DNA of 64,000 nt. Source: Acidimicrobiia bacterium UBA5794 (GTDB lineage Bacteria; Actinomycetota; Acidimicrobiia; Spongiisociales; UBA5794). Made by a program: the position numbers and the translations under genes. Positions 11,768 to 26,643 of the stretch are shown one piece after another (the first letter of the stretch is position 1; every line of letters begins with the position of its first letter). The notes under the pieces are model-generated. The model was not told the DNA's origin. It searched no databases and worked only from the letters and a program-made list of their open reading frames with translations. The stretch covers positions 146,503 through 210,502 of the forward strand of contig DIDS01000014.1 of NCBI GenBank assembly GCA_002418265.1, written 5' to 3'.

Positions 11768-12843
11768 TGAGCGAGTCCAATATTCGCTCCTTCGATCTGA
11801 CGGTCCCCGGCCTCGCCACGGAGCTGACGAACGAGCTCAACAACCTGAGCAACGCCGGTTCCACCGAGTGGGTGACCCTTTCCGATGAGTCCGCCGCTCG
11901 GATTCACCGGGAGCCGTCCATCGATGTTCGCTTCGCCACGCTCAACTGCCCGTGGATAGCTTCCCTGCTCAAAGAGGCCGAGCCCTTCAACTCTGAGAAC
12001 CTCGGCGATGGAGAAGCAGTCATGCACCTCGGCGAAGTCAACGTCTTCGGGGCCGATCCCTGCCTTCTCGTAGGCATCCAGTGCCGTTGCCCACGTCAAG
12101 GGCTCGTACGTCATCGAGGTTGGTTCGACATCGACGGAACCTGAACGCAGCGACGATGCCGCAAGCTTCACGCCACGACCGTTTGCATATTTGGCTGCTG
12201 CCCGGTCGCTCATCATGATGACAGCGGCCGCACCGTCGGTGACGGGCGAGCAGTCATGAAGTCGTAGCGGATCTGCAACGGCACGTGACTCGAGGACATC
12301 TTCGACGGTGATCGCCTTACGAAAATGTGCAAGAGGGTTTTGGGCAGCATTTGCCTTGTTCTTGACGGGAATCAATGCGAGCTGCTCACGAGTCATGCCG
12401 TGGTCTGCCATGTACCTTGTGGCCCGCATTGCGTAGATGCCTGGCATCGTTGCACCGATGGCTGCCTCAGGGTCGGACGGATCCGGTGTGAGAGCACCGG
12501 CGAATTGGGAGGTGAGGTGCTCCGTTCCGACCGCAACGACAACATCATTTTCACCGGCACGGATGGCAAGCGAAGCTTCCCGGATGGCGGTTGCACCGCT
12601 GCTACAGGCATTCTCGACATTGACGAGCGGCAATCCTGCAAGCCCCACCTGTGCAAGGATGCGCTGGCCCATCACCATGCCCTGGAAGACGTGGCCGACG
12701 TAGGCAGACTCGATGAGTCTCGCGTCGATCCCGGCGTCTGCTATGGCTTCGAGGAGGGCTGCTGCACCAAGATCCGTGGCGTCGCTGTCGGGGTGCTTAC
12801 CAAATCGGGTCATCCCGACTCCGGTGATGTGAACTTGGGTCAT
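11701..12843 (-). CDS. thiolase-like protein (SCP-x/BbsB type, partner of a DUF35 protein)
   Basis: It has the VGMTRFGKH start and the NACSSGATA active-site Cys segment. It is 380 aa and overlaps the DUF35 gene by 4 nt. Confidence 0.85.
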   Translation of the reverse strand: MTQVHITGVGMTRFGKHPDSDATDLGAAALLEAIADAGIDARLIESAYVGHVFQGMVMGQRILAQVGLAGLPLVNVENACSSGATAIREASLAIRAGENDVVVAVGTEHLTSQFAGALTPDPSDPEAAIGATMPGIYAMRATRYMADHGMTREQLALIPVKNKANAAQNPLAHFRKAITVEDVLESRAVADPLRLHDCSPVTDGAAAVIMMSDRAAAKYANGRGVKLAASSLRSGSVDVEPTSMTYEPLTWATALDAYEKAGIGPEDVDFAEVHDCFSIAEVLRVEGLGLFEQGSYPRAVERGEANIDGRLPVNPSGGLIGKGHPLGGTGVAQVVELVRQLRGEAGDRQIEGANIGLAHCRGGKAVGIEGAACTVQIVTR

Positions 12844-13259
12844 TTTGTTACCTCGCTCGGTCGAAATCGGTAACCGGTGAGGGGATGGCCTTCGTCGTCT
12901 TCACCAAAGGGTTCGAGCGAGAGCTCCATCGGCATTCCGATCCTGATGTCCTCGAAGTCTATGCCAGAAATCTGACCCATGATCCGAACACCCTCGGGGA
13001 AATCGACATATCCGAGTGCGTATGGCACCTCAAAGGCAGGGGTTGACTGGCGGACAATGGAGTACGTGTAGAGGACTCCCTCGGTGGAGAACGGGATCGT
13101 TTCGAGATCCTGGCTCAGGCACCCAGCGCAGGCTTCGCGAACTGGGAAAAAACTCGCCCCGCAGGCTCGGCAGCGACTTCCCATGAGGTTTCCGGTTCCG
13201 TCGGATCGCACCTCGAGCTCGCCTGGCCGGAACGATGCACCCATCACAGATGTAGTCAA
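12840..13259 (-). CDS. DUF35 OB-fold / Zn-ribbon protein (thiolase partner, BbsA-like)
   Basis: It has a CRACGASFFP...CAGC zinc ribbon followed by an OB-fold segment. Confidence 0.85.
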   Translation of the reverse strand: MTTSVMGASFRPGELEVRSDGTGNLMGSRCRACGASFFPVREACAGCLSQDLETIPFSTEGVLYTYSIVRQSTPAFEVPYALGYVDFPEGVRIMGQISGIDFEDIRIGMPMELSLEPFGEDDEGHPLTGYRFRPSEVTK

Positions 13260-13418
13260 TGATCCTCCTCCATATGCAACCTTCCGTCCGGTCGGTCGAC
13301 TTCGTCGAGTGTCTCCATCACACCTCGCTGCGTCAATGGGCTACCAACGCCATTTGTATGGTACAAAGACCTCACGAGTGAAGAACCGAACAACGATGAC
13401 CGATGACCGATGTCGACC

Positions 13419-13475
13419 CTTCTTCCCGTCCTCCCCCCTGTCTTCTTCCCGTCCTCCCGCTTGCGGGGGGACGGG
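13419..13475 (+). repeat. duplicated C-rich arm (CTTCTTCCCGTCCTCCC at 13419-13435 and 13444-13460) plus a G6ACGG hairpin (13448-13475)
   Basis: The direct repeat and an 11-12 bp stem, CCCGTCCTCCC(gcttgc)GGGGGGACGGG, were read from the sequence. It is homologous to hairpins at 35454-35481 and 35501-35527. Confidence 0.8.
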
Positions 13476-13522
13476 TTTGAACCGACTCTGACATCCGACG
13501 TCCGAGTTCTCGCCTAATGCAA

Positions 13523-13544
13523 ATGCATCATGTAAATGATGCAT
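13523..13544. promoter_or_regulatory. candidate operator: perfect 9-bp inverted repeat ATGCATCAT-gtaa-ATGATGCAT in an AT-rich patch
   Basis: It lies 44 nt upstream of the ATG at 13588, in the divergent region between the two catabolic operons. Extra AATGCA half-site repeats precede it at 13516-13528. Confidence 0.55.
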
Positions 13545-13587
13545 CGCGCGGATTGCGGTGAAGGCATCGGGTTGAGACTCTATCCTC

Positions 13588-14889
13588 ATGCCAACCGACC
13601 GGCCGGAAGGCTACGATCATCAAGGAGGCAGCGTGGTGCAAGCGGACAACACCAGCAATCGGGAACAGGAACTGCTCTACGACTGGAACACGATCGGTGG
13701 GGAATCCATCCCAGCACCCAGCGTTGTTGAACTCGACGACGAGTCACTTCGAGATGGCCTTCAGAGCCCTTCGGTGCGCCAACCGAACCTCGACGAAAAG
13801 CTCGACATCCTCCACCGCATGGAAGGTCTCGGCATCCATGCAGCCGACCTCGGGTATCCGGGAGCCGATCCGGTTGTTCTCGACCATGTGGTCGCCCTCG
13901 CCGAGGAGATCCGCAACGAGGGCTTCAAGATCGAGCCCAACTGCGCAGGCCGCACGCATCCCGCTGACATTTTCCCCATCGCAGAGGCCCAGCAGCGTTC
14001 CGGTCTTCCGATCGAAGCGTCCCTCTTCATCGGCATGAGCCCCATCCGCCAGTTTGTTGAAGGCTGGGACGTCGACTTCCTCCTCAAGACCACGGTCGAT
14101 GCCGTGACCCTTGCCCGCAAGGAAGATCTTGAGGTCATGTACGTGACCGAGGACACCACACGGGCACGGCCCGAGATCCTCCGCAAGGTCTATACGGCCG
14201 CCATTGAGGCCGGCGCACGTCGCATCTGCATCGCCGACACCGTCGGACACGCAACACCATGGGGAGTCAAGGCACTCATCAAGTTCGCAGTCGAGATCGT
14301 GAAGGACTCCGGCGAGGACGTCAAGATCGACTGGCACGGGCACCGGGATCGGAACCTGTCGGTCATCAACTCCATCGAAGCGCTCTCCGCCGGCGCACAC
14401 CGCGTCCACGGGTGCGGTGGAGGGATCGGCGAACGTGCCGGGAACACCCCGATGGAGATGTTGCTTGTCAACCTCAAGCTCATGGGATGGCTCGATCACG
14501 ATCTGACAACGCTGCCCGCCTACTGCGAGGCCATCTCGAAAGCAACGGACACACCGATTCCGAACAATTGGCCAGCCATCGGTCAGGATGCCTTTGCTAC
14601 GAGCACCGGCGTGCACGCAGCCGCGGTGCTCAAAGCGATCAACACTGGTGATACGTGGCTCGCAAACCGGATCTACAGCGGCGTGCCCGCCGATGTTCTC
14701 GGTCGGGAACAGGAGATCACTGTCGGACCGATGAGCGGAAAGGCCAATGCCATTGCGTGGCTCACCAAACGGGGCCACGACCCCGACGAACCAACCGTGG
14801 ACAAGATCCTTGCCGCAGCAAAGGCATCGGATCACGTCCTGCTTGAGAATGAGATTCTTGAGCTTCTCTCAACGGCAAACACACCATGA
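13588..14889 (+). CDS. HMGL-like (DRE-TIM) 2-isopropylmalate / homocitrate / citramalate synthase family protein
   Basis: It has the DESLRDGLQSP and HGHRDRNLSV...GIGERAGNTPME motifs. It is 433 aa and lacks a LeuA regulatory domain. The start may be internal. Confidence 0.8.
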   Translation: MPTDRPEGYDHQGGSVVQADNTSNREQELLYDWNTIGGESIPAPSVVELDDESLRDGLQSPSVRQPNLDEKLDILHRMEGLGIHAADLGYPGADPVVLDHVVALAEEIRNEGFKIEPNCAGRTHPADIFPIAEAQQRSGLPIEASLFIGMSPIRQFVEGWDVDFLLKTTVDAVTLARKEDLEVMYVTEDTTRARPEILRKVYTAAIEAGARRICIADTVGHATPWGVKALIKFAVEIVKDSGEDVKIDWHGHRDRNLSVINSIEALSAGAHRVHGCGGGIGERAGNTPMEMLLVNLKLMGWLDHDLTTLPAYCEAISKATDTPIPNNWPAIGQDAFATSTGVHAAAVLKAINTGDTWLANRIYSGVPADVLGREQEITVGPMSGKANAIAWLTKRGHDPDEPTVDKILAAAKASDHVLLENEILELLSTANTP

Positions 14890-16697
14890 CTGTCGACATC
14901 GAACCTCGTAGCGAGACCGGTACCACCGTTCTCCTTTCCGGAAACGAAGCCATTGCCCGTGGTGCGGTGGAGGCCGGAGCCCTTGTGGCAGTCGGCTACC
15001 CCGGTACGCCAAGCACTGAGATTTTGGAATCCATCGCGCACCGCACTGAAATGCAGGTGCGATGGTCACCAAACGAAAAGGTTGCACTCGATGTTGCCCT
15101 CGGAGCGTCCCTTGGTGGAGTTCGGACCCTCTGCACGATGAAGCACGTCGGTCTCAACGTTGCAGCAGACACCTTCATGACCATGGCCTACACCGGAGTC
15201 GGCGCAGGTCTGGTCATCGTCGTTGCAGACGATCCTGGCATGCACAGCTCCCAAAACGAGCAGGACACAAGGGCCTATGCACGCATGGGCGGCGTACCGC
15301 TGCTCGAACCAAGCAACAGCAAAGAAGCAAAAGCATTCACTGCCCTCGCCTTTGAGATCTCAGAGCAATTCGACACACCGGTTCTCGTTCGTACAACGAC
15401 ACGAGTTTCGCACAACCGAGGCGTCGTTGAGCTTGGAGACCGTATGGACAAGCCAGTCGTCGGCTTCGAGCGCAACCCGCAGAAGTACGTCATGATTCCA
15501 GGTCACGCCCGAGGGCGACGGCCGGCTCTCCTGCGGCGCCTCAAGGAACTCGCCGAATATGCCGAAACGAGTCCACTCACCAAGGAATCGGGGACGGGCG
15601 ATTCTTTCGGGGTTGTGACCTCCGGGATCGTACACAACTACCTGCGTGAGGTTCTGCCGGACGCCAAGGCACTCAAACTCGGGATGAGCCATCCCCTCCC
15701 GATCGGGAGAATCAGGGAGTTTTCCAAGACCGTTGACCGCTTGTTCGTGCTTGAAGAGCTCGACCCCATCGTGGAGAACGATCTGCGCGCCGCGGGTATC
15801 GCCGTCGAAGGAAAGGAGTTCTTCCCCCAAGTCGGTGAGCTCAGCCCCGATGCGGTACGACGAGGGTTTGCCGCTGCAGGCATCCTCCCCGAGTACCTCT
15901 CGATCGAGCCAGCACCGGGCACCGTTGCGCGACCCCCGCTCCTGTGCCCCGGGTGTCCCCACACACCTCCGTACCTCGCCCTCAAGCGACTGGGAGCAGT
16001 TGTCACCGGAGACATCGGTTGCTACACCCTTGCGGCGCTTGAGCCGCTCTCGTCGATGGATACCTGTATTGCAATGGGTTCCAGCATTGGGATGGCAGTC
16101 GGTATGGCAGCATCAGGCGGTGCGGGTGCACCGGTTGTTGCGACCATTGGAGACTCGACCTTCCTGCACGGTGGTATTGCAGGACTTGCAGATGCCGTCT
16201 ATGCAGACGCAAACATCACGGTGATCATCCTCGACAACGGAACAACAGCCATGACCGGCGGGCAGGAACATCCCGGCACCGGGACCACACTCCAAGGGGC
16301 GGAAGCAAAAGCTGTCGACCTGGTAGGACTATGTGAGGCTCTCGGTGTCAGGGACGTCCGGGTGATCGACCCCTACGACATGGGTGCAACCTACAGCGCC
16401 ATCGAGGGTGCGGTCGCACACATCGGTCCATCCGTTGTCATCACAAACCGTCCATGTGTCGAGGCGCCGGTCAAGGTCAGGGATACACCCTTCAAGGTGA
16501 TTGCCGAGGCATGTACCGCTTGTCAGCTCTGCATGACTGCGGGTTGTCCTTCAATCGTGTGGTCAGAAGAGACATTCGAAGGTCGCCGCAAGGTCGTCAT
16601 CGATCCGGTCACCTGCACTGGTTGCACCATCTGTGCCCAGCTCTGCCCCCCACTGGCGATCATCCCGATCACCTCAGAAGCGGAGGCAGCACGATGA
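14886..16697 (+). CDS. iorA: indolepyruvate/arylpyruvate:ferredoxin oxidoreductase alpha subunit
   Basis: It has GNEAIARGAVEAG, GYPGTPSTEI and a TPP-binding GDSTF..GG segment. The C-terminal Cys clusters are CTACQLCMTAGCP and CTGCTICAQLCP. ATGA overlap with the upstream gene. Confidence 0.85.
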   Translation: MTVDIEPRSETGTTVLLSGNEAIARGAVEAGALVAVGYPGTPSTEILESIAHRTEMQVRWSPNEKVALDVALGASLGGVRTLCTMKHVGLNVAADTFMTMAYTGVGAGLVIVVADDPGMHSSQNEQDTRAYARMGGVPLLEPSNSKEAKAFTALAFEISEQFDTPVLVRTTTRVSHNRGVVELGDRMDKPVVGFERNPQKYVMIPGHARGRRPALLRRLKELAEYAETSPLTKESGTGDSFGVVTSGIVHNYLREVLPDAKALKLGMSHPLPIGRIREFSKTVDRLFVLEELDPIVENDLRAAGIAVEGKEFFPQVGELSPDAVRRGFAAAGILPEYLSIEPAPGTVARPPLLCPGCPHTPPYLALKRLGAVVTGDIGCYTLAALEPLSSMDTCIAMGSSIGMAVGMAASGGAGAPVVATIGDSTFLHGGIAGLADAVYADANITVIILDNGTTAMTGGQEHPGTGTTLQGAEAKAVDLVGLCEALGVRDVRVIDPYDMGATYSAIEGAVAHIGPSVVITNRPCVEAPVKVRDTPFKVIAEACTACQLCMTAGCPSIVWSEETFEGRRKVVIDPVTCTGCTICAQLCPPLAIIPITSEAEAAR

Positions 16698-17566
16698 GTG
16701 ACAACTCAAAAGGACTGCTCTTAGCAGGCGTCGGTGGACAGGGTGTCATTCTCGCAAGCATGATCATCGCCGATGCACTCATGCGTGCCGGGTTCGATGT
16801 CAAACAAAGCGAAGTCCACGGCATGGCTCAGCGTGGCGGATCAGTGGTGAGCCACATCCGTTGGGGCAAAGAAGTGGCAAGTCCCCTTGTGGAGAAGGGC
16901 TCTGCCGAGGTACTCGCAGCCTTCGAGTGGGCTGAGGCGATCCGCTGGGTCGATTACGTGCGCAACGAAGGAGCCGTCGTCACCGACATCAAGACCATCG
17001 TTCCCCCCGGTGCATGCAACGACACCCACGCATGGTCGACTGCCTATCCGCGATTCGAGATCGACCTGTTCCGAAGCAGGCTCATCGAAACGCGGTTCGT
17101 TGACGCCACAGCAAACGCAGTACAGCTCGGGAACGTCCGGGCCGCCAACAGCGTGATTCTCGGGTCGGTCGCCGCGTTCGTTGGTATCGATCTCATCCAT
17201 TGGGAGGAGGCGATCGCAAGTCTCGTCCCGAAGGGAACCGAAGAGATCAACCTCGCCGCGTTCCACGCCGGAATGAATGCACCTATGGCGCAAATTCCGG
17301 CGCCTCCAGCGGAACCAGCGGAGTACCTGGGACCGCATCTGATCGATATCCAGCAGGATTGGTGCAAGAGCTGCGACATCTGTCCCAGGGTCTGCCCCGA
17401 GCACTGCCTCAAACTCGACACGGACGGGACCCTGCTCGTGATCAATGCCGATGCCTGCACCGGTTGCCGACTCTGCGAGATGCTCTGCCCCGACTTTGCC
17501 ATAACGATCCGACCACCCGCAGCCGCGGAACACCACGAACCAGCCATTTCGGGGAGGAAGATGTGA
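16694..17566 (+). CDS. iorB: IorB-type (gamma-like) subunit fused to a 2x[4Fe-4S] ferredoxin (delta-like) domain
   Basis: The N-terminus reads GVGGQGVILAS...HGMAQRGGSVVSH. The C-terminus has CKSCDICPRVCP and CTGCRLCEMLCP. ATG 16694 overlaps the iorA stop. Confidence 0.8.
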   Translation: MSDNSKGLLLAGVGGQGVILASMIIADALMRAGFDVKQSEVHGMAQRGGSVVSHIRWGKEVASPLVEKGSAEVLAAFEWAEAIRWVDYVRNEGAVVTDIKTIVPPGACNDTHAWSTAYPRFEIDLFRSRLIETRFVDATANAVQLGNVRAANSVILGSVAAFVGIDLIHWEEAIASLVPKGTEEINLAAFHAGMNAPMAQIPAPPAEPAEYLGPHLIDIQQDWCKSCDICPRVCPEHCLKLDTDGTLLVINADACTGCRLCEMLCPDFAITIRPPAAAEHHEPAISGRKM

Positions 17567-18717
17567 CAATCCAAATCACGATGCCCGGGGAGAAACTCAT
17601 CCAGGGAAATGAGGCGTGCGTCATGGGCGCCATTGCTTCGGGGTGCAACTTCTACGGCGGCTATCCGATTACACCGTCAAGCGAGATCGCCGAGCACATG
17701 GTGCGGCGGATGCCCAAGGTCGGTGGCGTATCAATCCAGATGGAAGACGAGATCTCAGCGCTTGCGTCAATCATCGGGGCATCCCTCGCCGGATCCAAGG
17801 CGATGACGGCAACGTCGGGTCCGGGGTTCTCGCTCATGCAGGAGCATATTGGATTCGCCGCCATGGCCGAAGTGCCCTGTGTGATCGTCAACGTCATGCG
17901 CGGAGGTCCGAGCACCGGAATGCCGACCTCACCATCGCAGGGCGACGTGATGCAGGCGCGCTGGGGAACCCACGGAGATCACCCTGCGATTGTGCTTGCA
18001 CCGGCTTCCGTCGGCGAGGTTTTCGACCTCACCGTGAAGGCCTTCAACCTGGCAGAACGGTTCCGTACACCCGTCATCCTGCTCTATGACGAGATCATCG
18101 GTCATACTCGTGAAAGTGTCTCACTACCCGAATCCGTCACGGTCATTGACAGGGTGACACCCGATGACGCCCTCGAGGAATTCTGGCCCAAGGAGGCAGA
18201 TCCCGACGGAGTCCCCGCCATGTCCCCGTTCGGAGATGGCCGCCGTTTCCATGTGACCGGTCTCGCCCACGACCACCGGGGATTCCCAACCAACGACACG
18301 GCTGTCGCCGAGGCACTGATCAACAGGCTCCACCGCAAGATTGACGCCCACCTTGATGAGGTCATCGAGGTCGAGGAGTATCTGCTGGACGACGCTGACG
18401 TTGCGATCTTTGCATACGGCATCGTCGGGCGGTCAGCCAAGCTCGCTGTCGAACGTGCCCGCCTGAACGGCATCAAGGCCGGCCTCATCAGGCCGCTGAC
18501 CCTGTGGCCGTTCCCGACGGCGCAGGTCGCTGAGGTTGCCCGCAAGGTCGACACGATCGTCGTTGCAGAAATGAATCTCGGACAACTCGTCGGTGAGGTC
18601 GAGCGCGCCGCAAAGGGACAAGCAGAGGTGGTTTCACATCTGCGCACGGGAGGCGAGCCGGTGACACCAACCGCACTTGAAGAGGTGCTTGCCAAGATCG
18701 ATGGAGGAAACGCATGA
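17563..18717 (+). CDS. korA: 2-oxoacid:ferredoxin oxidoreductase alpha subunit (KorA/OorA type)
   Basis: It has the GNEACVMGAIASGCNFYGGYPITPSSEI motif. GTG 17563 overlaps the upstream stop. An alternative ATG lies at 17581. Confidence 0.85.
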   Translation: MTIQITMPGEKLIQGNEACVMGAIASGCNFYGGYPITPSSEIAEHMVRRMPKVGGVSIQMEDEISALASIIGASLAGSKAMTATSGPGFSLMQEHIGFAAMAEVPCVIVNVMRGGPSTGMPTSPSQGDVMQARWGTHGDHPAIVLAPASVGEVFDLTVKAFNLAERFRTPVILLYDEIIGHTRESVSLPESVTVIDRVTPDDALEEFWPKEADPDGVPAMSPFGDGRRFHVTGLAHDHRGFPTNDTAVAEALINRLHRKIDAHLDEVIEVEEYLLDDADVAIFAYGIVGRSAKLAVERARLNGIKAGLIRPLTLWPFPTAQVAEVARKVDTIVVAEMNLGQLVGEVERAAKGQAEVVSHLRTGGEPVTPTALEEVLAKIDGGNA

Positions 18718-19598
18718 CCGATGTCAAGATCGACATCCAGCCAGATATGACGACAGAGGTCACAGCAACCGAAAGAGCAGACGTCAGGTCGTATCTGCGT
18801 CAATGGGCAATGCCTCACGTGCTGTGCCCCGGATGCGCCCACGGCATCGTCTTGCGATCCTTTCTTGAAGCCGTCGATCAGCTCCAACTCGATCAGGACA
18901 AGATCGCGATGGTTGCCGGTATCGGCTGTAGCTCGCGACTCGCGGGATACGTCGACTTCTGCACCCTTCACGGAACCCATGGAAGAGCGCCAGCGTTCGC
19001 TACGGGTCTCAAACTCGCTCGGCCTGACCTCAACGTTGTCGTGGTGACAGGCGATGGCGATGGTCTCGCAATCGGTGGGAACCATCTCATCCATGCGGCA
19101 CGGCGCAACATCGACATGACGGTTCTGCTCCTCAACAATTCGATCTACGGAATGACCGGTGGTCAGGCAGCTCCCACAACGCCGGAAGGCGCCATTGCAT
19201 CGACAGCACCCCAAGGTCACATCGAGCCGGGATTTGACGCCTGCAAGTTGCTCATGGGGGCCGGGGCCAGCTACGTTGCCCGTGTGTTTGCCGCCAACCC
19301 GATCGAAATGACCAAAGTCATGATGGATGGACTCTCACATCCGGGATTCGCATTCATCGAATTGGTCAGTGACTGCCCCGAATATTTCGGGAGGTACAAC
19401 AAGATCGGTGGCGGACCCGAGATGCTCAACTGGATCGCTGTGCGCGATGAGGGTATTGCAGGGCCACTGTCCGAGAAGCGCTTCGTTGAGCATATTCCGG
19501 TCAAGCCTCCGGCCATCGGCGTCAAGTCCGGTGTCCTCCAGCGAGAGATCAGGCCGGTCTACGCAGGTGTCCGTGCAGCAGAGGGCCAGCACACATGA
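18714..19598 (+). CDS. korB: 2-oxoacid:ferredoxin oxidoreductase beta (TPP-binding) subunit
   Basis: It has CPGCAHG, GIGCS and GDGD..AIGGNH TPP motifs. ATGA overlap with korA. Confidence 0.9.
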   Translation: MTDVKIDIQPDMTTEVTATERADVRSYLRQWAMPHVLCPGCAHGIVLRSFLEAVDQLQLDQDKIAMVAGIGCSSRLAGYVDFCTLHGTHGRAPAFATGLKLARPDLNVVVVTGDGDGLAIGGNHLIHAARRNIDMTVLLLNNSIYGMTGGQAAPTTPEGAIASTAPQGHIEPGFDACKLLMGAGASYVARVFAANPIEMTKVMMDGLSHPGFAFIELVSDCPEYFGRYNKIGGGPEMLNWIAVRDEGIAGPLSEKRFVEHIPVKPPAIGVKSGVLQREIRPVYAGVRAAEGQHT

Positions 19599-20134
19599 CA
19601 CGGCGTGAGATCCGTATCGCAGGTGCCGGTGGGCAAGGCGTTGTCACCGCTGGTCGGATCCTTGCTGAGGCTGCGATCCTGTCGGGGAAGAAGGCAACCC
19701 ACAGCCAGCTCTACGGTCCACAGGCTCGAGGAGGATCGAGTCGCTCCGATGTCATCATCGCCCCCGACACGGTCGGATTTCCCCTCGCAGACAACATCGA
19801 TACGCTCTTGGCCCTGTCACAGAAGGCATTCGACAAGTATGTACCCGAGCTTGCCGTGGGAAGCCTGCTCATCGTTGATACACAATGCAAATCGGACACG
19901 CCCCCCGAAGGTGCGCTCTATTTCCCCATCGTCGACACGGCACGACTCGCCACCGGAGGCGAGCTTGCCACCGGCTTGGTTGCACTCGCCGTGCTCCAGG
20001 CACACACCGGTCTCATAGACGCAGACGCGCTCAGGAAGGCGGTTTCGGGCCGGATTCCCCAACAGCATCTCAAGTCGAGCCTTGAGGCCTTGGAAGCAGG
20101 GATGGAGCTTGCCCCCCAGGGTGCCTTGACGTGA
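19595..20134 (+). CDS. 2-oxoacid:ferredoxin oxidoreductase gamma subunit
   Basis: It has the IAGAGGQGVVTAGRILA and YGPQARGG motifs. ATGA overlap with korB. Confidence 0.85.
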   Translation: MTRREIRIAGAGGQGVVTAGRILAEAAILSGKKATHSQLYGPQARGGSSRSDVIIAPDTVGFPLADNIDTLLALSQKAFDKYVPELAVGSLLIVDTQCKSDTPPEGALYFPIVDTARLATGGELATGLVALAVLQAHTGLIDADALRKAVSGRIPQQHLKSSLEALEAGMELAPQGALT

Positions 20135-20730
20135 CCAACGTCCCTGATACGAGGGATCGCATTCGGCTTGAGGGTGCGGCACTGTTCTCTCGTAAGGGGT
20201 TCAATGGTACGTCAATGTCGGAACTCGCCGAGGCTGTCGGCATCACGAAATCGAGCCTGTACCACCACTTTCCCTCAAAGCAGGCCCTGTTGTCTGAGAT
20301 CATTGAACGGACGGTGAACCGGGTCACTCCCCTCGTACAAGAGGTCGCAGACATGGACGCTCCGGCTTCTGAACGGCTCCGGAGAGCGACGATCCTCCAT
20401 ACGTTGGGCGCCATCGAGGATCGAGACGCCGTTGCATGCTTCACGGATGAAGGCAGGTACCTCTCCCCCGAATTCATGGCCGACCACGTCAAGAAACGCG
20501 ACGCATACGAGCAGGTATTCCGCGAGCTGTTCGAAGACGGCTATGCGAGCGGAGAGTTCGTCGATCAGGACTTCGGCGTCGCTGTCAAGGCGGTACTCGG
20601 CATGTGCAATTCAGTCATTCGGTGGTATCGACCAGATGGTCCACGCAGTGCCGAGGAAATCGCAGAAGAGTTCGCACGATTCGCCGTTCGTGGGGCCTCG
20701 ATTCCGACACCTGCGAGAGCAACGGTATGA
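20131..20730 (+). CDS. TetR-family transcriptional regulator embedded in the operon
   Basis: It has the HTH segment FSRKGFNGTSMSELAEAVGITKSSLYHHFPSK. The GTG start overlaps the upstream stop (GTGA), and its own stop overlaps the next ATG (ATGA). Confidence 0.9.
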   Translation: MTNVPDTRDRIRLEGAALFSRKGFNGTSMSELAEAVGITKSSLYHHFPSKQALLSEIIERTVNRVTPLVQEVADMDAPASERLRRATILHTLGAIEDRDAVACFTDEGRYLSPEFMADHVKKRDAYEQVFRELFEDGYASGEFVDQDFGVAVKAVLGMCNSVIRWYRPDGPRSAEEIAEEFARFAVRGASIPTPARATV

Positions 20731-21986
20731 GTGGTGCGCTCAACGGCATCACGGTACTTGACCTTTCCCAGGGCGCTGCAGGACCAACGTGTGGGATGTA
20801 TCTCGCCGACCTGGGAGCCGACGTACTCAAGGTCGAGCCACCGGGTGGCGAATGGGGGCGACGGCTGGGCCCACCCTTCGTGGGAGGGGTCGCTGCTGCG
20901 TACCTGGGAATGAATCGCAACAAGCGGAGCATCGTCGTTGACCTCAAGCACGAGGAGGGATCCGAGGTGGTGCTTCGTCTCGCCGAGCAGTGCGATGTGG
21001 CACTTGAGAGCTTTCGTCCCGGAGTGGCTGATCGCCTTGGCATCGGATACGACGCCATGCACGCCCGCAATCCACGGCTCATCTACGCGGCGATTTCAGC
21101 TTTCGGGCAGAGTGGTCCCTGGAGAGATCGTCCCGGTGTCGATGGAGTCGCCCAGGCAATGGGTGGCATCATGAGCGTCACGGGCACTGACGGTGGGCCG
21201 CCGGTGAAGGTTGGTGTCCCCGCAGCCGACATGGCTGGCGGCGTATTTGCGTCCCAGGCAATCCTGGCTGCCCTCTTTGCAAGGGAACGCACCGGTACCG
21301 GCCAGCGTGTTGACGTCTCCCTCCTTGATGCGCTCCTGTCATTCCAGGTCGTCCCGCTTTCGATGTATCTCGCCAGTGGGGTATCACCGAAGCGTCTCGG
21401 AAGCGCAGCGCCTTACGCTGCACCCAATGAGGCTTTTCCCACCAAGGACGGCCACGTGATGGTCGCTGCCTACACGGAAAAGCGTTGGCCAGCTCTGTGC
21501 AAAGTTCTCGGCCATCCCGAGCTTGCCACCGATCCAAGGTTCGACACGAACGACAAACGTGTCCGTGGAAGAAGCGAACTACAGGAGGTCCTCGGTCCCC
21601 TCTTCGCGGAACGAACCACAGCGGAGTGGATCGAACTCCTCGACGACGCTGATGTGCTGTGTGGACCGATCCTCGACTACCAGCACCTCACCAACGAAGA
21701 ACACGTCCGCCTCAGCGAATCGATCACCACGGTCGAACACCCCGCCACAGGCGCGGTTCGCTCCCCAAGGCTTCCTGCCAGATTCTCGGACACGACCGGA
21801 GATTTCCGAATCTCGGCACCACCGATTGCAGGTGAGCATTCTTTGGTGGTTCTGCGCGACTACGGTTTCACCGAAACCGAGATCTCCATCCTGATCGACG
21901 AGGGAGTCGTGGCTGCGTCAGAGGTGGCTGGGACAGATACTGAGTCAGACAATCATCAAGCAGTAGGAGGTTCAAGTGTCCGTTGA
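20727..21986 (+). CDS. family III CoA-transferase (CaiB/BaiF/Frc family)
   Basis: It has the [33 protein letters not shown] start and the ESFRPGV segment. It is 419 aa. Confidence 0.9.
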
Positions 21987-22800
21987 CAGCAAAGAGGCCG
22001 AGCAGGCCGAAACCACCGAGGACTTGGTCCTGTACGAACGCAAAGGAGCCGTTGGCGTTCTGACCCTGAACCGACCGCAGGCTCTCAATGCAATGACCGT
22101 CGCGATGCTTGAGACGATCGGTGAACTGCTCGACGAGATCGAGAACGATCCCGATACCCGTGCCCTCGTACTTACCGGTGCGGGGGAAAAGGCGTTCTGT
22201 GTCGGGGCAGATCTCAAGAGTCGCGGCACACAGTTCGAGGCAGGCCTCATCCATGACCCGCTCGGTCTGCTGGTGCGGAGCGTCTTTGGAAGGTTTGAGA
22301 GCCTGCATGTTCCCGTGATCGCAGCCATCCGCGGCTACGCCCTTGGTGGCGGACTTGAGATGGCACTCGCCTGCGACCTCCGGGTGGCAACCGAGGGTGC
22401 ACGTCTCGGGTTTCCCGAGGCCAAGGTCGGGAGCCTTCCTGGTGCCGGTGGGACGCAGCGGGCAACCCGTCTCATCGGTCCTGGCTTTGCAAAGGAATTG
22501 ATGTTCACTGCCGACCACGTCAGCGCAGCCGACGCGTACCGGATGGGTCTTGTGAACCGGGTCGTCCCCGACGACGATCTCATGGAAGAAACGATGAAGC
22601 TCGCCGAACGGATCGCATCGCGGGCTCCGCTCTCCCACGACCGGGTCAAGGAACTCATCAACCGGGCCACCGAAACGGATCTTGAAACCGGTCTTGAGCT
22701 TGAATCAACAAGCCACGCCGTTCTTCGTGCAAGTGAAGATCGTGATGAGGGAATCAAGGCATTCGTCGAAAAGCGGCCACCCGAATTCAAAGGGCGCTAA
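21976..22800 (+). CDS. enoyl-CoA hydratase/isomerase (crotonase) family protein
   Basis: It has [16 protein letters not shown] and [15 protein letters not shown] segments. GTG 21976 follows an AGGAGG RBS at 21965-21970. Confidence 0.9.
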
Positions 22801-22842
22801 TCCGCTCGAAGAGGACGGGAGCCGCCTCCGAAAGGACCAAAC

Positions 22843-23589
22843 GTGAACGTGAAGGACAGAGTTGCAATTGTCACAGGCTCCGGCCAGGGCATCGGACGTG
22901 GCATTGCTGAAGCACTGGCCGGCGCCGGTGCCAAGGTTGTCGTCAATGACCTCGTAGCGGAGCGGGTTGACGAAACCGTTGCCGATTTCAAAGAAGCCGG
23001 CTACACGGTGATTGGCCATGCGACCAATGTCGCTTCTGCGGAGGGAGCCGAAGGCTTGGTTGCGGCGGCGATCGAGGCCTTCGGGCGGGTCGACATCCTT
23101 GTCAACAACGTCGGCATGGCGAGAGACGGATACCTCGCCAAGATGTCGGAAGAGGACTGGGATACGGTCATCACCGTCAACCTCAAGTCGCAGTTCCTGA
23201 TGTGTCGAGCAGTTGCTCCCCACTTCATGGAGCAGAACTCGGGACGCATCATCAACATATCGTCTCGGGCATGGCTCGGTGGTCCCGGCCAGGCAAACTA
23301 CGCCGCGTCGAAAGGTGCCGTGATCTCCCTGACCCGCACCCTTGCCCTTGAGATGGCACGGTTCGGCGTCACTGCAAACGTGATTGCCCCCGCTCTCGTT
23401 GATACGCCATTGTTCCGTGGCCTCAACGAAGAGGTTCAAGAGCGGCTCATCAAGACGATCCCGGCTCGCAGAATCGGGACACCCGCTGACATCGGCAACG
23501 CCGCGCTGTTCCTCGCAGCAGACGAGTCGTCATATGTGACGGGCCAGACGCTCTATGTCTGTGGCGGCCGTAGCCTCGGAGCTGGATGA
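22843..23589 (+). CDS. short-chain dehydrogenase/reductase (FabG-like 3-oxoacyl/3-hydroxyacyl reductase)
   Basis: It has the TGSGQGIGRGIA cofactor motif, NNVG, and the YAASKGAV catalytic Tyr/Lys. Confidence 0.9.
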   Translation: MNVKDRVAIVTGSGQGIGRGIAEALAGAGAKVVVNDLVAERVDETVADFKEAGYTVIGHATNVASAEGAEGLVAAAIEAFGRVDILVNNVGMARDGYLAKMSEEDWDTVITVNLKSQFLMCRAVAPHFMEQNSGRIINISSRAWLGGPGQANYAASKGAVISLTRTLALEMARFGVTANVIAPALVDTPLFRGLNEEVQERLIKTIPARRIGTPADIGNAALFLAADESSYVTGQTLYVCGGRSLGAG

Positions 23590-23602
23590 TGGGATCAACG
23601 CC

Positions 23603-24874
23603 ATGGGCATGACGCACGCCGAACGTATCTTCGCTCAAGCAGCCGGCGGCGAGTCGGTCAGCGCGGGAGAGTTCGTTGTCGCAGATATCGATCTTGCGAT
23701 GCTTCATGACATCTTTGCTGCCCAGGTCTTCGACATGCTCCAAGAGGTTGAGGGTGACAAGATCTTCGACCGAGCAAAGGTGGCGGTCGTGATCGATCAC
23801 CTCGTTCCTGCACCCTCGGCTGAGGCTGCAGCCCTGCACAAACGAATCAGGGAACACGTTGCGCGGCTCGGAATCGAAACCTTCTATGACGCCGGGGCGG
23901 GCATCTGCCACCAGCTCCTTCCCGAGGGTGGCCATGTGCGCCCGGGAATGCTGATCGTGGGAACGGACTCGCACACGACTACGTATGGAGCACTCGGTGC
24001 CGGTGGAACCGGTATCGGCACATCTGACATGGTTTATGCCCTCTCGACCGGGAGGCTGTGGTTCCGAGTGCCAGAGACGATTCGGTTTGAAATGTTTGGC
24101 GATCTCCAACCCGGGGTCACGTGGAAGGACGTCATCTTGCACCTCGCAGGCCGCTACGGCACGGACGGCGCCCAATACAAGGCGATGGAGTTCGGCGGCC
24201 CTGCGGTCAAGCATGCCGACATGCCTTCGCGACTGACGGTGGCGAACATGGCCGTCGAGATGGGAGCAAAGTTTGGCCTGTTCGCAGCAGACGAGGTCAC
24301 AGACGAATACCTCATCGCGCAAACCGGTGAAGGAACCGACCGGTATGGCCCAGATCCTGACGCCACATACGAGGCGGTCCACGAGATCACCTTGACCGAT
24401 CTCGATCCTCAGGTCGCACGGCCCCATGAGGTTGACAACGTCGGTTCCGTGACCGAAGTTGAAGGCATCACGATCGACCAGGCATTCATCGGATCGTGCA
24501 CGAATGGGCGTATTGAGGATCTCCGTGCCGCTGCTGCCGTGCTTGACGGTAAGCACATTGCTTCAGGGGTCAGGCTCATCGTCGCACCCGCATCGCAATC
24601 GGTGATAAAGGAAGCCACCGACAGCGGTGTTCTCGCAACCCTTGTGGATGCAGGTGCCACCGTTCTGGCACCGGGGTGCGGTCCGTGCTTTGGTGGCCAC
24701 GGCGGTCTCCTCGCGCAGGGTGAACGCTGTATTGGGACCCACAATCGGAACTTCACCGGTCGTATGGGCCACGCTGCTGCCGAGATCTACCTTGGCTCAC
24801 CAGCAACGGTCGCTGCATCGGCCATTGCTGGGTCCATCGCCGATCCCCGCACCGTGGAAGTGGCACATGTCTGA
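23603..24874 (+). CDS. aconitase-family dehydratase large subunit (LeuC/HacA type)
   Basis: It has GTDSHTTTYGALGA, IGSCTNGR and CGPCFG cluster-binding segments. The start is trimmed to ATG 23603, after the SDR stop. Confidence 0.9.
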   Translation: MGMTHAERIFAQAAGGESVSAGEFVVADIDLAMLHDIFAAQVFDMLQEVEGDKIFDRAKVAVVIDHLVPAPSAEAAALHKRIREHVARLGIETFYDAGAGICHQLLPEGGHVRPGMLIVGTDSHTTTYGALGAGGTGIGTSDMVYALSTGRLWFRVPETIRFEMFGDLQPGVTWKDVILHLAGRYGTDGAQYKAMEFGGPAVKHADMPSRLTVANMAVEMGAKFGLFAADEVTDEYLIAQTGEGTDRYGPDPDATYEAVHEITLTDLDPQVARPHEVDNVGSVTEVEGITIDQAFIGSCTNGRIEDLRAAAAVLDGKHIASGVRLIVAPASQSVIKEATDSGVLATLVDAGATVLAPGCGPCFGGHGGLLAQGERCIGTHNRNFTGRMGHAAAEIYLGSPATVAASAIAGSIADPRTVEVAHV

Positions 24875-25379
24875 AACCGCTTTGGAACACGACCACATGA
24901 CGGGGCGCGTCTGGAAATTTGACAGCGACATCAGCACAGACGTGCTGTCACCTGGCCAGTATGCCGTCGATCCGGTGGAAGTTCGGAAGCTCCACGTGCT
25001 CGAATCGGTCAACCCCGAGTTTGCACCGAACGTCCAACCCGGCGACATCGTCGTGGCAGGATCAAACTTCGGATGCGGATCGAGCAGAGAGACGGCCGCC
25101 GAAAACCTCAGAGCGCTCGGCGTCGCCTGCGTCGTTGCCGAGTCATTCGCTCGGATCTTCATGCGGAACGCGGTTGCCGTCGGCCTTCCGGTCATCGTAT
25201 GCAAAGGAGTCCACGACTCGTTCTCCGACGGTGATACGGCCAAGGTGGTCCTCTCGGAGGGAAGCGTAACCAACATCGACACCGGGACTTCTCTCGTTGG
25301 AGACTCCCTACCGGCGGAGATGCGGGACATCCTTGCCGCGGGAGGGATTCTCAACGTGCTCCAATCACAGTCGGAGTGA
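24867..25379 (+). CDS. aconitase-family dehydratase small subunit (LeuD/HacB type)
   Basis: It has the GSNFGCGSSRETAAENL motif and is 170 aa. ATG 24867 overlaps the large-subunit gene by 8 nt. Confidence 0.9.
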   Translation: MSETALEHDHMTGRVWKFDSDISTDVLSPGQYAVDPVEVRKLHVLESVNPEFAPNVQPGDIVVAGSNFGCGSSRETAAENLRALGVACVVAESFARIFMRNAVAVGLPVIVCKGVHDSFSDGDTAKVVLSEGSVTNIDTGTSLVGDSLPAEMRDILAAGGILNVLQSQSE

Positions 25380-25417: not shown

Positions 25418-26098
25418 GTGAGGCGACTCATGAACCGAACCACAACCATCGACAGCACCGTTGCTGATCCGCTCGCCCAGATGCTTGAGGTGCTCGGCAG
25501 AACCGGTGACGCGATGGTGGCAATGGACGGTTCAATGGAGATCATTGCTTGGAACGATGCTGCGACTGAACTGCTCGGCTATAGCGCAGAGGAGGTGCTT
25601 GGACGGCCATGTTCCGAGGTGTTGTGCTGGCGAGACCGATGTGGGGATTCGGTGTGTGGCCCGACGTGTCCAGCGTCAGAACTCGGCGATCCAGACGAGA
25701 TCATGGGGCCGCGGGAGGTCCTCGGTCGGTCCTCGAAGAACCAAACGCTTTGGCTGAGTGCATCAACGATCATCCCACCGGTCGAGATGCGTGAGGAATG
25801 TCGCATTGTGCACCTGATCCGTGAGATTGCTCTTCCGCCTGAGCTTGAGCGGCTCATCGTTGAACGCCTCGACGGATGGAGCGTCGGTACCGAGGTCCGC
25901 GACGATCGACTTGATGTGCTCACCCCACGCGAACGTGAGGTGCTTCAGCTCCTGACGGAGGGGCTCGACGGGACTGCCATTGCCGAGAAACTCTACGTGT
26001 CACCAGCGACGGTTCGTAACCACATCCAACACATTCTCACCAAGCTCAATGTCCATAGCCGAGTCGAGGCCGTCGCCTTCGCGCTTCGTCGTAACTGA
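25418..26098 (+). CDS. PAS-domain / LuxR-type HTH one-component regulator with a Cys-rich PAS insert
   Basis: The C-terminus reads LTPREREVLQLLTEGLDGTAIAEKLYVSPATVRNHIQHILTKL. The N-terminal PAS segment has AWNDAATELLGYSAEEVLG followed by 5 Cys. An alternative ATG lies at 25430. Confidence 0.85.
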   Translation: MRRLMNRTTTIDSTVADPLAQMLEVLGRTGDAMVAMDGSMEIIAWNDAATELLGYSAEEVLGRPCSEVLCWRDRCGDSVCGPTCPASELGDPDEIMGPREVLGRSSKNQTLWLSASTIIPPVEMREECRIVHLIREIALPPELERLIVERLDGWSVGTEVRDDRLDVLTPREREVLQLLTEGLDGTAIAEKLYVSPATVRNHIQHILTKLNVHSRVEAVAFALRRN

Positions 26099-26109
26099 CA
26101 CACCGACCT

Positions 26110-26643
26110 CTAAACAAGGTCGCGGACCGAGAGCACGGATCGAAGGTTTCGACCGGTTGCAGTGTTTCCGAGAATCTCCGGGAGCTTTGCGGCCAGCTTG
26201 CTTCTGCCAATCCCTGCGGGAGTATGCAGATAGAAAACGCCGTCGCTGAGCGCGAACTCCTCGTCTTTGGCGGCCAACTCGCTCGCGGCAGCGAGATCGA
26301 TGCCATCGGCGGTGTCATTGCGGAAGAAGAAATGCACACTTTTGGCATCGCTGATGCTCGTCTGAAACGGATTCGCAGAGATCGCAGCTTCCAGTTCGGA
26401 CGGGTTCAGGACAACAACGACAGGCTGGAAACCGTGTCGAGTTTTGATCACGTCACCAATCTGGGCGGCGACGGCCGACCGGTCAAGGGCAGGATCAGCT
26501 TCGAGAACGACATTGCCACTCTGGATGTATGTCCGGACATTGACGAATCCGTCATCGGCGAGGCTTGCGCGGAGGTCTGCCATCGACATCCGGTTGGCAC
26601 GTCCGACATTGACTCCCCGCAGGAACGCAATCCAGGTGTTCAT
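26110..26643 (-). CDS. DUF1697 family protein
   Basis: The N-terminus IAFLRGVNVGRANRMSMADLR is typical of DUF1697. Confidence 0.8.
   Translation of the reverse strand: MNTWIAFLRGVNVGRANRMSMADLRASLADDGFVNVRTYIQSGNVVLEADPALDRSAVAAQIGDVIKTRHGFQPVVVVLNPSELEAAISANPFQTSISDAKSVHFFFRNDTADGIDLAAASELAAKDEEFALSDGVFYLHTPAGIGRSKLAAKLPEILGNTATGRNLRSVLSVRDLV

Follow-up and report, generated by a model that had tools for sequence, protein, structure and literature searches.

Which transformation is carried out by the genes at positions 13588-25379 of the 64,000-nucleotide stretch analysed here (hereafter the window; contig DIDS01000014.1 of Acidimicrobiia bacterium UBA5794, assembly GCA_002418265.1, positions 146,503 to 210,502)? 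A preliminary description of this DNA had read the region as a plus-strand operon of twelve genes, i.e., a LeuA-like synthase, IorA and an IorB-ferredoxin protein (an indolepyruvate:ferredoxin oxidoreductase, IOR), the alpha, beta and gamma subunits of a second 2-oxoacid:ferredoxin oxidoreductase (OFOR), a TetR-type regulator, a CoA-transferase, a crotonase, a short-chain dehydrogenase/reductase (SDR) and LeuC-like and LeuD-like proteins. Gene families were assigned by means of Pfam and NCBIfam models, and junctions were examined in an open reading frame (ORF) listing with start-codon inspection; the gene order was confirmed in this way, and all twelve genes belong to the families that had been named. 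The earlier statement that this is not a leucine operon is likewise upheld, since no LeuB-type (Iso_dh-family) gene occurs in the cluster or in any variant examined, and none of the biosynthetic equivalog models is passed by the LeuA-like or LeuCD-like proteins. Based on family chemistry and gene content, we propose that the module represents an oxygen-free route by which an arylpyruvate would be converted to an aroyl-CoA and succinyl-CoA. This scheme is given an even chance of being correct, and the aromatic nature of the substrate, taken alone, a somewhat better one.

The proposal involves genes that lie outside the twelve. The operon had been described as divergent from an hcr/had/oah/dch operon, and hcrCAB-like, had, oah and dch-like genes are indeed present there on the minus strand; however, the three genes at the head of that operon (10517-13259) had been overlooked. 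The first encodes a DUF35 protein (12840-13259; zinc ribbon and OB fold, domains zf-ChsH2 and OB_ChsH2_C), a BbsA-like thiolase partner whose sole NCBIfam match is BbsA (84.6 bits versus a cut-off of 250) and whose nearest solved relative is also BbsA (7pxp_A, 70 bits). The second encodes an SCP2-type, BbsB-like thiolase (11701-12843), proposed to be a (4-hydroxy)benzoylsuccinyl-CoA thiolase, for which the nearest solved relative is the benzoylsuccinyl-CoA thiolase BbsB (7pxp_C, 283.5 bits, E=2.7e-83), with archaeal acetoacetyl-CoA thiolases behind it, and which scores 311.7 bits against the BbsB NCBIfam equivalog (cut-off 750). The third (10517-11728) encodes a PrpF-superfamily isomerase that scores 341 bits against Mii, the 3-methylitaconate Delta-isomerase (3g7k), compared to 208 against PrpF and ~174 against LigU; the TSK and NCGN motifs, which supply the catalytic Lys and Cys of Mii, align and are conserved. 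The thiolase and isomerase genes are translationally packed with hcrCAB-had-oah-dch in the window, and the DUF35, thiolase and isomerase genes appear to complete the module of which the twelve-gene operon forms the other part.

To assess the recurrence of these genes elsewhere, an alignment of LeuA-like homologues was used as query against a set in which each GTDB species is represented by a single genome; all window proteins were then mapped onto the resulting 80 loci. A midpoint-rooted neighbour-joining tree of the LeuA-like proteins is divided into two clades, the first of which contains the window and every module-bearing locus. Nearly all clade 1 loci with enough contig encode the LeuA-like and LeuCD-like proteins, CoA-transferase, crotonase, SDR, DUF35 protein and thiolase, and the PrpF-like gene is present wherever the contig runs past the thiolase gene, being located 3' of the latter in every complete variant; only a single clade 1 locus among the full-length fetches, L068, is solitary. 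This shared set, including the Mii-like isomerase, is found in Acidimicrobiia, Thermoleophilia, Gaiellaceae, Acidobacteriota, Sulfobacillus and other Bacillota, and Armatimonadota, its order being shuffled between phyla and the thiolase being 63-89% identical between phyla. Chance falls far short of explaining the arrangement; at least five lineages of phylum rank share the set, and do so in different gene orders.

The variants fall into a small number of layouts. Acidimicrobiia loci share the window's arrangement of two divergently transcribed operons, and three loci (L016, L018 and L023) have the window layout minus the IOR and the second OFOR, which are also lacking from the core in L021 and L022. 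In the Thermoleophilia locus L021, leuDC-sdr-ech-coaT is divergent from duf35-thl-prpF, and the order leuA-coaT-ech-sdr-leuCD is seen in an Acidobacteria metagenome-assembled genome (MAG; L022). The module of Bacillota (including Sulfobacillus) and Armatimonadota forms a single long co-linear operon, i.e., hcrCAB, leuC, leuD, paaK-type ligase, leuA, iorAB, OFOR alpha/beta/gamma, (tetR), coaT, ech, sdr, duf35, thl. The Sulfobacillus-type loci as fetched stopped at the thiolase gene, just beyond which a PrpF-like gene was predicted, and this prediction held: such a gene is located directly 3' of the thiolase gene in Sulfobacillus benefaciens (L085/L086), an Armatimonadota MAG (L087) and Ca. Thermofontivivens (L088). 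The Sulfobacillus cluster continues with a major facilitator superfamily transporter, a thioredoxin reductase-like flavoprotein and a benzoate-CoA-ligase-family ligase (548 bits, cut-off 375). Frequent companions of the module are IorAB, the three-subunit OFOR, a 4-hydroxybenzoyl-CoA reductase and a PaaK-type arylacetate-CoA ligase (~433 aa, AMP-binding_C_2 domain, best match PaaK at 480 bits), the gene for the latter immediately preceding that for the LeuA-like protein in seven loci (L054, L063, L027, L025, L032, L024 and L050). Neither LeuB nor an isocitrate lyase (ICL)-type lyase was found across the variants. Acyl-CoA dehydrogenase is not conserved: none is encoded at 3692-26098 of the window or in the L085 and L087 clusters, and nearby ones were found only in L025 and L023.

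In the proposed scheme, the first step would be performed by the LeuA-like 2-alkylmalate synthase (433 aa, 13588-14889, plus strand), which would condense phenylpyruvate or 4-hydroxyphenylpyruvate with acetyl-CoA to 2-(hydroxy)benzylmalate, i.e., the HphA reaction. The protein consists of an HMGL-like domain alone, the C-terminal regulatory LeuA_dimer domain being absent, and falls far under every NCBIfam cut-off (its best model, isopropylmalate synthase (IPMS), giving 177 bits versus a cut-off of 517), reaching ~113 bits at best against any solved structure. A study of HphA defined five specificity positions, with a gatekeeper that is Ala73 in HphA, Leu in IPMS and His in homocitrate synthase (HCS) (PMC12961565). 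Ala120 of the LeuA-like protein, which is invariant among 78 homologues, aligns with the HphA Ala73 position, the Leu of 3rmj and the His of 6ktq. Furthermore, the alignment places Met184 and Val186 at the Arg and Thr positions by which HCS binds the distal carboxylate (positions from PMC12961565) and Cys214 where IPMS has Asn, with Met184, Val186 and Cys214 lining the pocket. These pocket residues fit an aromatic substrate but are not diagnostic of one, since they are shared by the clade 2 proteins. A function as Re-citrate or homocitrate synthase is disfavoured, the pocket being hydrophobic and the polar residues of HCS being absent; judged by sequence alone, the protein might still be a citramalate synthase.

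The 2-benzylmalate would then be dehydrated to benzylmaleate by the LeuC-like (23603-24874) and LeuD-like (24867-25379) proteins, both encoded on the plus strand. The former passes PRK00402 (564 bits) and the latter the LEUD_arch 'LeuD/DmdB' model (164 bits), while every equivalog model was failed, and the pair belongs with the archaeal isopropylmalate isomerase (IPMI)/HacAB/DmdAB subfamily, the IPMI of M. jannaschii being the nearest solved relative. The recognition loop of the LeuD-like protein, YAV-D, is two residues shorter than its counterparts, which read YLVY in IPMI and YLRT in homoaconitase (2pkp), and the Arg of the homoaconitase loop is absent from it. The Mii-like isomerase would convert benzylmaleate to phenylitaconate (benzylidenesuccinate) by a 1,3-allylic shift of the dimethylmaleate/methylitaconate kind, and the family III CoA-transferase (20727-21986, plus strand; CoA_transf_3, 444 bits) would yield phenylitaconyl-CoA with succinyl-CoA as donor. 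The nearest solved relative of this transferase is succinate-hydroxymethylglutarate CoA-transferase (274 bits, compared to 159 for BbsF and 130 for BbsE) and its top NCBIfam match is succinate-glutarate CoA-transferase, suggesting that its relatives are succinyl-CoA:dicarboxylate transferases, as would fit the proposed step.

Hydration by the crotonase (21976-22800; ECH_1, 228 bits), as a phenylitaconyl-CoA hydratase analogous to BbsH, oxidation by the SDR (22843-23589; adh_short and adh_short_C2), as a 2-(hydroxy(aryl)methyl)succinyl-CoA dehydrogenase analogous to BbsCD, and thiolysis of benzoylsuccinyl-CoA by the BbsAB-like thiolase would finally produce (4-hydroxy)benzoyl-CoA and succinyl-CoA; both the crotonase and the SDR are encoded on the plus strand. 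An acyl-CoA dehydrogenase would not be needed because the substrate enters at the enoyl level, nor would LeuB, because the intermediate exits the leucine-type sequence at the maleate stage. Elongation of a 2-oxoacid by leucine-type enzymes would in this way lead, via an isomerase of the methylitaconate type, into a beta-oxidation of the toluene type. The scheme would employ every conserved gene and account for the absence of LeuB, acyl-CoA dehydrogenase and lyase, and the nearest characterised relatives (BbsAB, Mii, the dicarboxylate transferases and IPMI/DmdAB) appear to fit their respective proposed steps.

The link to the anaerobic benzoyl-CoA pathway, already drawn in the preliminary description, is sustained by the position of the module, which is co-operonic or divergent with had, oah, a dch-like gene and the genes for an Hcr-type reductase with an Fe-S loop. 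A tyrosine-derived substrate would give 4-hydroxybenzoyl-CoA, the substrate of Hcr, which would remove the 4-hydroxyl group. This 4-hydroxybenzoyl-CoA reductase-type molybdenum enzyme is encoded on the minus strand by HcrC (10038-10520), HcrA (7647-10037) and HcrB (6667-7650), the top NCBIfam matches of the three subunits being to Hcr alpha (861 bits, cut-off 995), beta (223, cut-off 405) and gamma (179, cut-off 258), all below the respective cut-offs. The HcrB-like subunit carries a conserved Cys-rich insertion (C117, C122, C138, C146 and C155) that ordinary xanthine-dehydrogenase-type FAD subunits lack, and which we take to correspond to the extra [4Fe-4S] loop of the Thauera 4-hydroxybenzoyl-CoA reductase. 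Besides the window, L011, L013, L016, L018 and the Bacillota loci L054 and L063 encode Hcr-type enzymes with the insertion. Had (5587-6648; TIGR03201, 456 bits, cut-off 339), Oah/BamA (4456-5583; TIGR03200, 575 bits, cut-off 464) and a Dch-like hydratase (3692-4459; top match TIGR03189, 209 bits, below the cut-off of 292) are encoded further along the same strand, and would act after dearomatisation by a reductase encoded outside the window.

The arylpyruvate would stem from transamination of phenylalanine or tyrosine or, in lineages with a PaaK-type ligase, from an arylacetate that is activated to arylacetyl-CoA and then reductively carboxylated by the IOR. The presence of both a PaaK-type ligase and an IOR beside the LeuA-like gene fits such a sequence of events, and reductive carboxylation by an IOR-type reaction serves aromatic amino acid synthesis in methanogens and rumen bacteria. 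IorA (14886-16697, plus strand) passes the equivalog model of the indolepyruvate/arylpyruvate:ferredoxin oxidoreductase alpha subunit (TIGR03336, 671.8 bits, cut-off 650.9), and IorB (16694-17566, plus strand; POR and Fer4 domains) scores 200 bits versus an equivalog cut-off of 230 and carries an extra C-terminal 2x[4Fe-4S] ferredoxin domain, residues 215-275 matching OorD and OGOR_delta (OorD/KorD-like). Such a fusion is rare, as only ~5 of the 150 best 50%-identity IorB representatives align past residue 215, and is kept across phyla (L085 3350-4225; L087 1550-2386). The three-subunit OFOR (alpha 17563-18717, beta 18714-19598 and gamma 19595-20134, plus strand) has no separate delta subunit; its alpha subunit passes PRK08659 (562 bits, cut-off 411) and scores only 99 bits with the model for PadG of phenylglyoxylate dehydrogenase, and the beta and gamma subunits are nearest to 2-oxoglutarate/2-oxoacid OFOR models. 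The enzyme probably acts on 2-oxoglutarate, and it would supply reduced ferredoxin and succinyl-CoA. The earlier idea of an OFOR as low-potential electron source is plausible.

The location of the IorB fusion directly upstream of a delta-less OFOR, conserved across phyla, suggests, if speculatively, electron transfer between IOR and OFOR, and coupling of the two enzymes through the fused ferredoxin is put forward with low confidence. It is a doubtful extension of this reading that coupling would let 2-oxoglutarate oxidation drive the reductive carboxylation of arylacetyl-CoA (net: arylacetyl-CoA + 2-oxoglutarate -> arylpyruvate + succinyl-CoA), such that the conversion of phenylacetate to benzoyl-CoA and succinate would be redox-neutral in a widespread and previously unrecognised pathway. 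According to a stoichiometric calculation, phenylacetate + CO2 + acetate -> benzoate + succinate is redox-neutral overall. Alternatively, the IOR in this window may simply help to supply reduced ferredoxin for Hcr.

The case for an aromatic substrate is made by the IorA equivalog match, the PaaK-type ligases, the Fe-S-loop Hcr, the benzoate-CoA-ligase-family gene and the pocket residues of the LeuA-like protein. A number of observations nevertheless weigh against the arylpyruvate scheme, every step of which is read from family chemistry and gene content. The clade 2 LeuA-like proteins, most of which are solitary in housekeeping contexts, possess the same pocket residues, and no aromatic-specific gene is encoded within 10 kb of the minimal variants L021, L022 and L023. 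The thiolase and DUF35 protein are well under the BbsB and BbsA equivalog cut-offs, and there is no close relationship of the crotonase, SDR and CoA-transferase to BbsH, BbsCD and BbsEF, no Bbs model being among their top NCBIfam matches. Benzoyl-CoA reductase, aminotransferase and PaaK-type ligase genes are absent from the cluster within the 64-kb window, and the IOR encoded alongside, if it worked oxidatively, would be a competitor for the arylpyruvate.

The minimal variants and the shared pocket also bear on the possibility that a non-aromatic 2-oxoacid is processed by the same chemistry (R-CH2-CO-COOH + acetyl-CoA -> R-CO-CoA + succinate, with R aliphatic), for example 2-oxobutyrate to acetyl-CoA and succinate in an 'ethylmalate cycle', the aromatic genes being incidental neighbours. 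It would accommodate a core that lacks IOR, Hcr and PaaK in L021, L022 and L023, pocket residues common to solitary homologues in non-aromatic contexts, and the small substrates on which Mii is established to act. We nonetheless regard it as unlikely, given that oxidative decarboxylation and ordinary beta-oxidation already handle aliphatic 2-oxoacids, that the PaaK-type ligase, IorA, Fe-S-loop Hcr and benzoate-CoA-ligase-family gene recur beside the module in several phyla, that the thiolase-DUF35 pair is nearest to BbsAB, and that the module is co-operonic with hcr/had/oah/dch in the window. Alternatively, the cluster might not encode a single pathway: the CoA-transferase, crotonase, SDR and thiolase would serve the lower benzoyl-CoA pathway (3-hydroxypimelyl-CoA via glutaryl-CoA to acetyl-CoA), the two OFORs would regenerate ferredoxin for Hcr and benzoyl-CoA reductase, and the LeuA/LeuCD proteins would be biosynthetic (leucine or citramalate-type isoleucine) and merely co-located. 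The Oah product 3-hydroxypimelyl-CoA does require a dehydrogenase and a thiolase, Thauera does regenerate ferredoxin with an OFOR, and the succinate-glutarate CoA-transferase match of the transferase would suit this arrangement. Yet the LeuA-like, LeuCD-like and Mii-like genes keep company with the CoA genes in different phyla and gene orders, including loci that have no had/oah/dch in the vicinity, the lack of LeuB in all variants and the failed biosynthetic equivalog models speak against a role in biosynthesis, and neither a DUF35-dependent thiolase nor a Mii-like isomerase has a role in straight-chain dicarboxyl-CoA oxidation, which makes this explanation distinctly unlikely.

An alpha-oxidation resembling the methylcitrate cycle, where AcnD and PrpF are established to cooperate, is also conceivable. 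The LeuA-like synthase would in that case condense arylacetyl-CoA with oxaloacetate or glyoxylate, the LeuCD-like and PrpF-like proteins would carry out an AcnD/PrpF-type rearrangement of its product, and one OFOR would turn the resulting arylglyoxylate into aroyl-CoA; the types of enzyme that this calls for (PaaK-type ligase, aconitase-family dehydratase, PrpF-family isomerase and OFOR) are available. It is rendered quite improbable by the fact that characterised LeuA-family synthases all use acetyl-CoA as nucleophile, by the absence of a PrpB/ICL-type lyase, by an isomerase that is much nearer to Mii than to PrpF and by the low PadG score of the OFOR alpha subunit; moreover, the most tightly conserved partners, i.e., the CoA-transferase, crotonase, SDR and DUF35-thiolase, would be left unexplained. 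The preliminary description had itself suggested that pimelyl-CoA or glutaryl-CoA is led to 2-oxoglutarate through OFOR-catalysed carboxylation and a LeuA/LeuCD module of homocitrate type operating catabolically. The adjoining had/oah/dch genes and the two OFORs are in keeping with it, but the residues that would bind a distal carboxylate are absent (HCS Arg replaced by Met184; YLRT by YAV), LeuA-type Claisen condensations are effectively irreversible, and homoisocitrate dehydrogenase and LeuB are lacking. In addition, the Mii-like isomerase and BbsAB-like thiolase would have no role, the module is found away from had/oah/dch in other phyla, and the conserved partners are peripheral ones (PaaK-type ligase, IOR, Hcr, BbsAB-like thiolase and Mii-like isomerase), so this reverse role is unsupported and its probability close to negligible.

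Regarding the organisation of the twelve-gene operon, the seven consecutive 4-nt start/stop overlaps noted earlier were confirmed by start-codon inspection, at 14886 (ATGA), 16694 (ATGA), 17563 (GTGA), 18714 (ATGA), 19595 (ATGA), 20131 (GTGA) and 20727 (ATGA), as were the overlaps of 11 nt between the CoA-transferase and crotonase genes and of 8 nt between leuC and leuD; the SDR gene is flanked by gaps of 42 nt and ~13 nt. Two of the seven overlaps rest on GTG starts (17563 and 20131). The former has a GGAGG Shine-Dalgarno sequence close upstream, and the latter is favoured since only with that start does the helix-turn-helix of the TetR-family regulator (20131-20730, plus strand; TetR_N and TetR_C_24 domains) stay intact; public gene calls on a same-species contig pick later ATGs, e.g., ATG 17581 in place of 17563. 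The divergent operon is no less tightly packed; in it, 4-nt overlaps join DUF35/thiolase, isomerase/hcrC (given the hcrC ATG at 10520), hcrA/hcrB and oah/dch. The TetR gene is kept at the same position in most cluster variants. A PAS-LuxR regulator (25418-26098, plus strand; GerE and PAS domains) is encoded 38 nt 3' of leuD, and its homologues adjoin the module in L014, L021 and L023, with weak matches in L054 and L063.

Both operons face outward from a control region of 328 nt (13260-13587), which contains a perfect palindrome, TGCATCAT-GTAA-ATGATGCA (13524-13543), and a GC hairpin (13448-13475). An exact search for the palindrome returned matches in same-species contigs only; in a relaxed comparison, a related motif, TGATGCAnnTGCATCA ... 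AAATGA ... GGATTG, was found to be conserved 5' of the LeuA-like gene in the Acidimicrobiia loci L006-L020. A second conserved box, CCATTTGnGTGATGCAA, lies closer to the DUF35 gene in several loci. The palindrome may serve as operator for one of the two regulators, TetR or PAS-LuxR. Scans for sigma-70 promoters and terminators in the divergent region and 3' of the LeuD and LuxR genes gave nothing above shuffled sequences, and an Rfam scan of the whole window gave no matches.

A minus-strand gene at 2666-3580, 112 nt past the dch-like gene, encodes a protein with an AbiEi_4 antitoxin-type helix-turn-helix and an MTES_1575 restriction-endonuclease-like domain, and possibly forms the boundary of the aromatic island. 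Just beyond the PAS-LuxR gene are genes for a DUF1697 protein (26110-26643, minus strand) and a B12-binding radical SAM protein (27190-28524, plus strand), without an evident link to the cluster. Two unusual fusion proteins are encoded on the minus strand, one of 841 aa (29267-31792) with a lysyl-phosphatidylglycerol-synthase transmembrane region and a partial protein-kinase domain, and one of 594 aa (31793-33577) with a cytochrome b561-like membrane domain and a sulfite-oxidase-type molybdopterin domain, and three consecutive large minus-strand ORFs of 762, 963 and 269 aa (54891-57179, 57214-60105 and 60099-60908) have no Pfam match at E<=1e-5. No aromatic-pathway genes, benzoyl-CoA reductase or PaaK-type ligase were found between 26 and 64 kb of the window, and no glycyl-radical enzyme anywhere within it.

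Some features of the related loci are recorded here in their own right. Clade 2 of the LeuA-like tree (L026-L084, e.g., L029 9989-11200; 54-59% identical) is found in Acidobacteriota, Planctomycetota and Gemmatimonadota, its genes being mostly solitary and located beside those for citrate synthase, M28 peptidase and rhomboid protease, with the exceptions of L037 and L076, which are beside had/oah/dch and Mo-hydroxylase genes. In two Acidimicrobiia MAGs (L006 764-2035; L015 2439-3704), a distant PaaK-family ligase, with 31-35% identity to those of Bacillota and Armatimonadota, is encoded ~7-9 kb upstream of the LeuA-like gene. L025 and L088 are the same contig, of Ca. Thermofontivivens primus, where the module is preceded by genes for a 525-aa acyl-CoA ligase and an acyl-CoA dehydrogenase and is interrupted by two ATP-binding cassette transport systems, one with a branched-chain-amino-acid-type substrate-binding protein, permeases and ATPases, the other with an NMT1-type substrate-binding protein. 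An NMT1-type substrate-binding protein is also encoded between the SDR and DUF35 genes in L027 and L087. Pfam and NCBIfam scans of the unexplained ORFs flanking L021, L022 and L023 mostly gave no match and no independent clue to the substrate, these ORFs probably being spurious high-GC frames, and a look-up of cluster members for a cultured carrier gave MAG-derived entries only.

To our knowledge, the anaerobic conversion of phenylalanine, tyrosine or phenylacetate to benzoyl-CoA is known only through PadBCD and the phenylglyoxylate route of a few denitrifiers. A full-text literature search on benzylmalate, phenylitaconate, methylitaconate and benzoylsuccinyl-CoA yielded no description of a pathway such as that proposed here, in agreement with the earlier statement that the composition is undescribed; the enzyme families are all known, and no description is known of their being combined in this way, of the proposed route or of the IorB-ferredoxin fusion. 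If correct, the route would constitute a second solution, which conserves carbon (as succinate rather than CO2) and dispenses with a molybdenum alpha-oxidase or a high-potential acceptor. The carriers of the module are abundant uncultured Acidimicrobiia, Thermoleophilia, Armatimonadota and Acidobacteriota of sediment and subsurface, and also Sulfobacillus. Phenylitaconate or benzylsuccinate-type building blocks would then also become accessible from arylpyruvates by a new biocatalytic route. A bbsA-like gene was taken as a sign of toluene degradation in a study of Acidimicrobiia MAGs (PMC12008989), and such bbsA/bbsB-like annotations in these MAGs would need correcting if the scheme holds.

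When compared to characterised systems, the module resembles several in part. Like Thauera aromatica, with its Hcr and 2-oxoglutarate OFOR, the window encodes an HcrCAB-like enzyme with a Cys-rich insertion in the beta subunit and an OFOR alongside, although its Hcr is below the equivalog cut-offs and its OFOR has alpha, beta and gamma subunits, the presumed delta domain being fused to IorB. The route via PaaK/PadJ, PadBCD (phenylacetyl-CoA:acceptor oxidoreductase) and PadEFGHI (phenylglyoxylate oxidoreductase) shares with the proposed one its start (phenylalanine or phenylacetate), its end (benzoyl-CoA), a PaaK-type ligase and OFOR-family enzymes; however, a PadBCD-type molybdenum enzyme is absent here, the OFOR alpha subunit is distant from PadG, and the carbons of the side chain would end up in succinate, whereas the Pad route loses CO2. 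The nicotinate fermentation of Eubacterium barkeri (Mii, the dimethylmalate dehydratase DmdAB and Dml) similarly combines a Mii-type isomerase with a hydro-lyase of the LeuCD/DmdAB subfamily, and in both systems a substituted itaconate, maleate and malate would be interconverted, yet here the sequence would run in reverse, from malate via maleate to itaconate, the place of the lyase Dml is taken by a LeuA-type synthase, the substituent would be aryl, and the mutase and other nicotinate genes are absent.

The cyanobacterial homophenylalanine system (HphA/HphCD/HphB) and leucine biosynthesis likewise pair a LeuA-family synthase with a LeuCD-family dehydratase, the gatekeeper is Ala as in HphA (Ala73; PMC12961565), and the first proposed intermediates, 2-benzylmalate and benzylmaleate, would be those of HphA/HphCD. 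In contrast to these systems, the module lacks HphB/LeuB, the proposed exit at the maleate stage via the isomerase would be catabolic rather than biosynthetic, and its LeuA-like protein is of low similarity to characterised LeuA-family enzymes, as reflected in the score of ~113 bits against the best solved structure. The Bbs pathway of toluene degradation differs in that it includes benzylsuccinate synthase and the acyl-CoA dehydrogenase BbsG, neither of which is present in the module, and possesses two CoA-transferase and two SDR genes (BbsEF and BbsCD) rather than one of each; all proteins of the module are under the Bbs equivalog cut-offs, and the enoyl intermediate, which in the Bbs pathway derives from toluene and fumarate, would here derive from a 2-oxoacid. 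Both nevertheless employ a family III CoA-transferase, a crotonase, an SDR and a DUF35-dependent SCP2-type thiolase, and the last three reactions as proposed here, together with their products, aroyl-CoA and succinyl-CoA, would be identical to those of the Bbs pathway.

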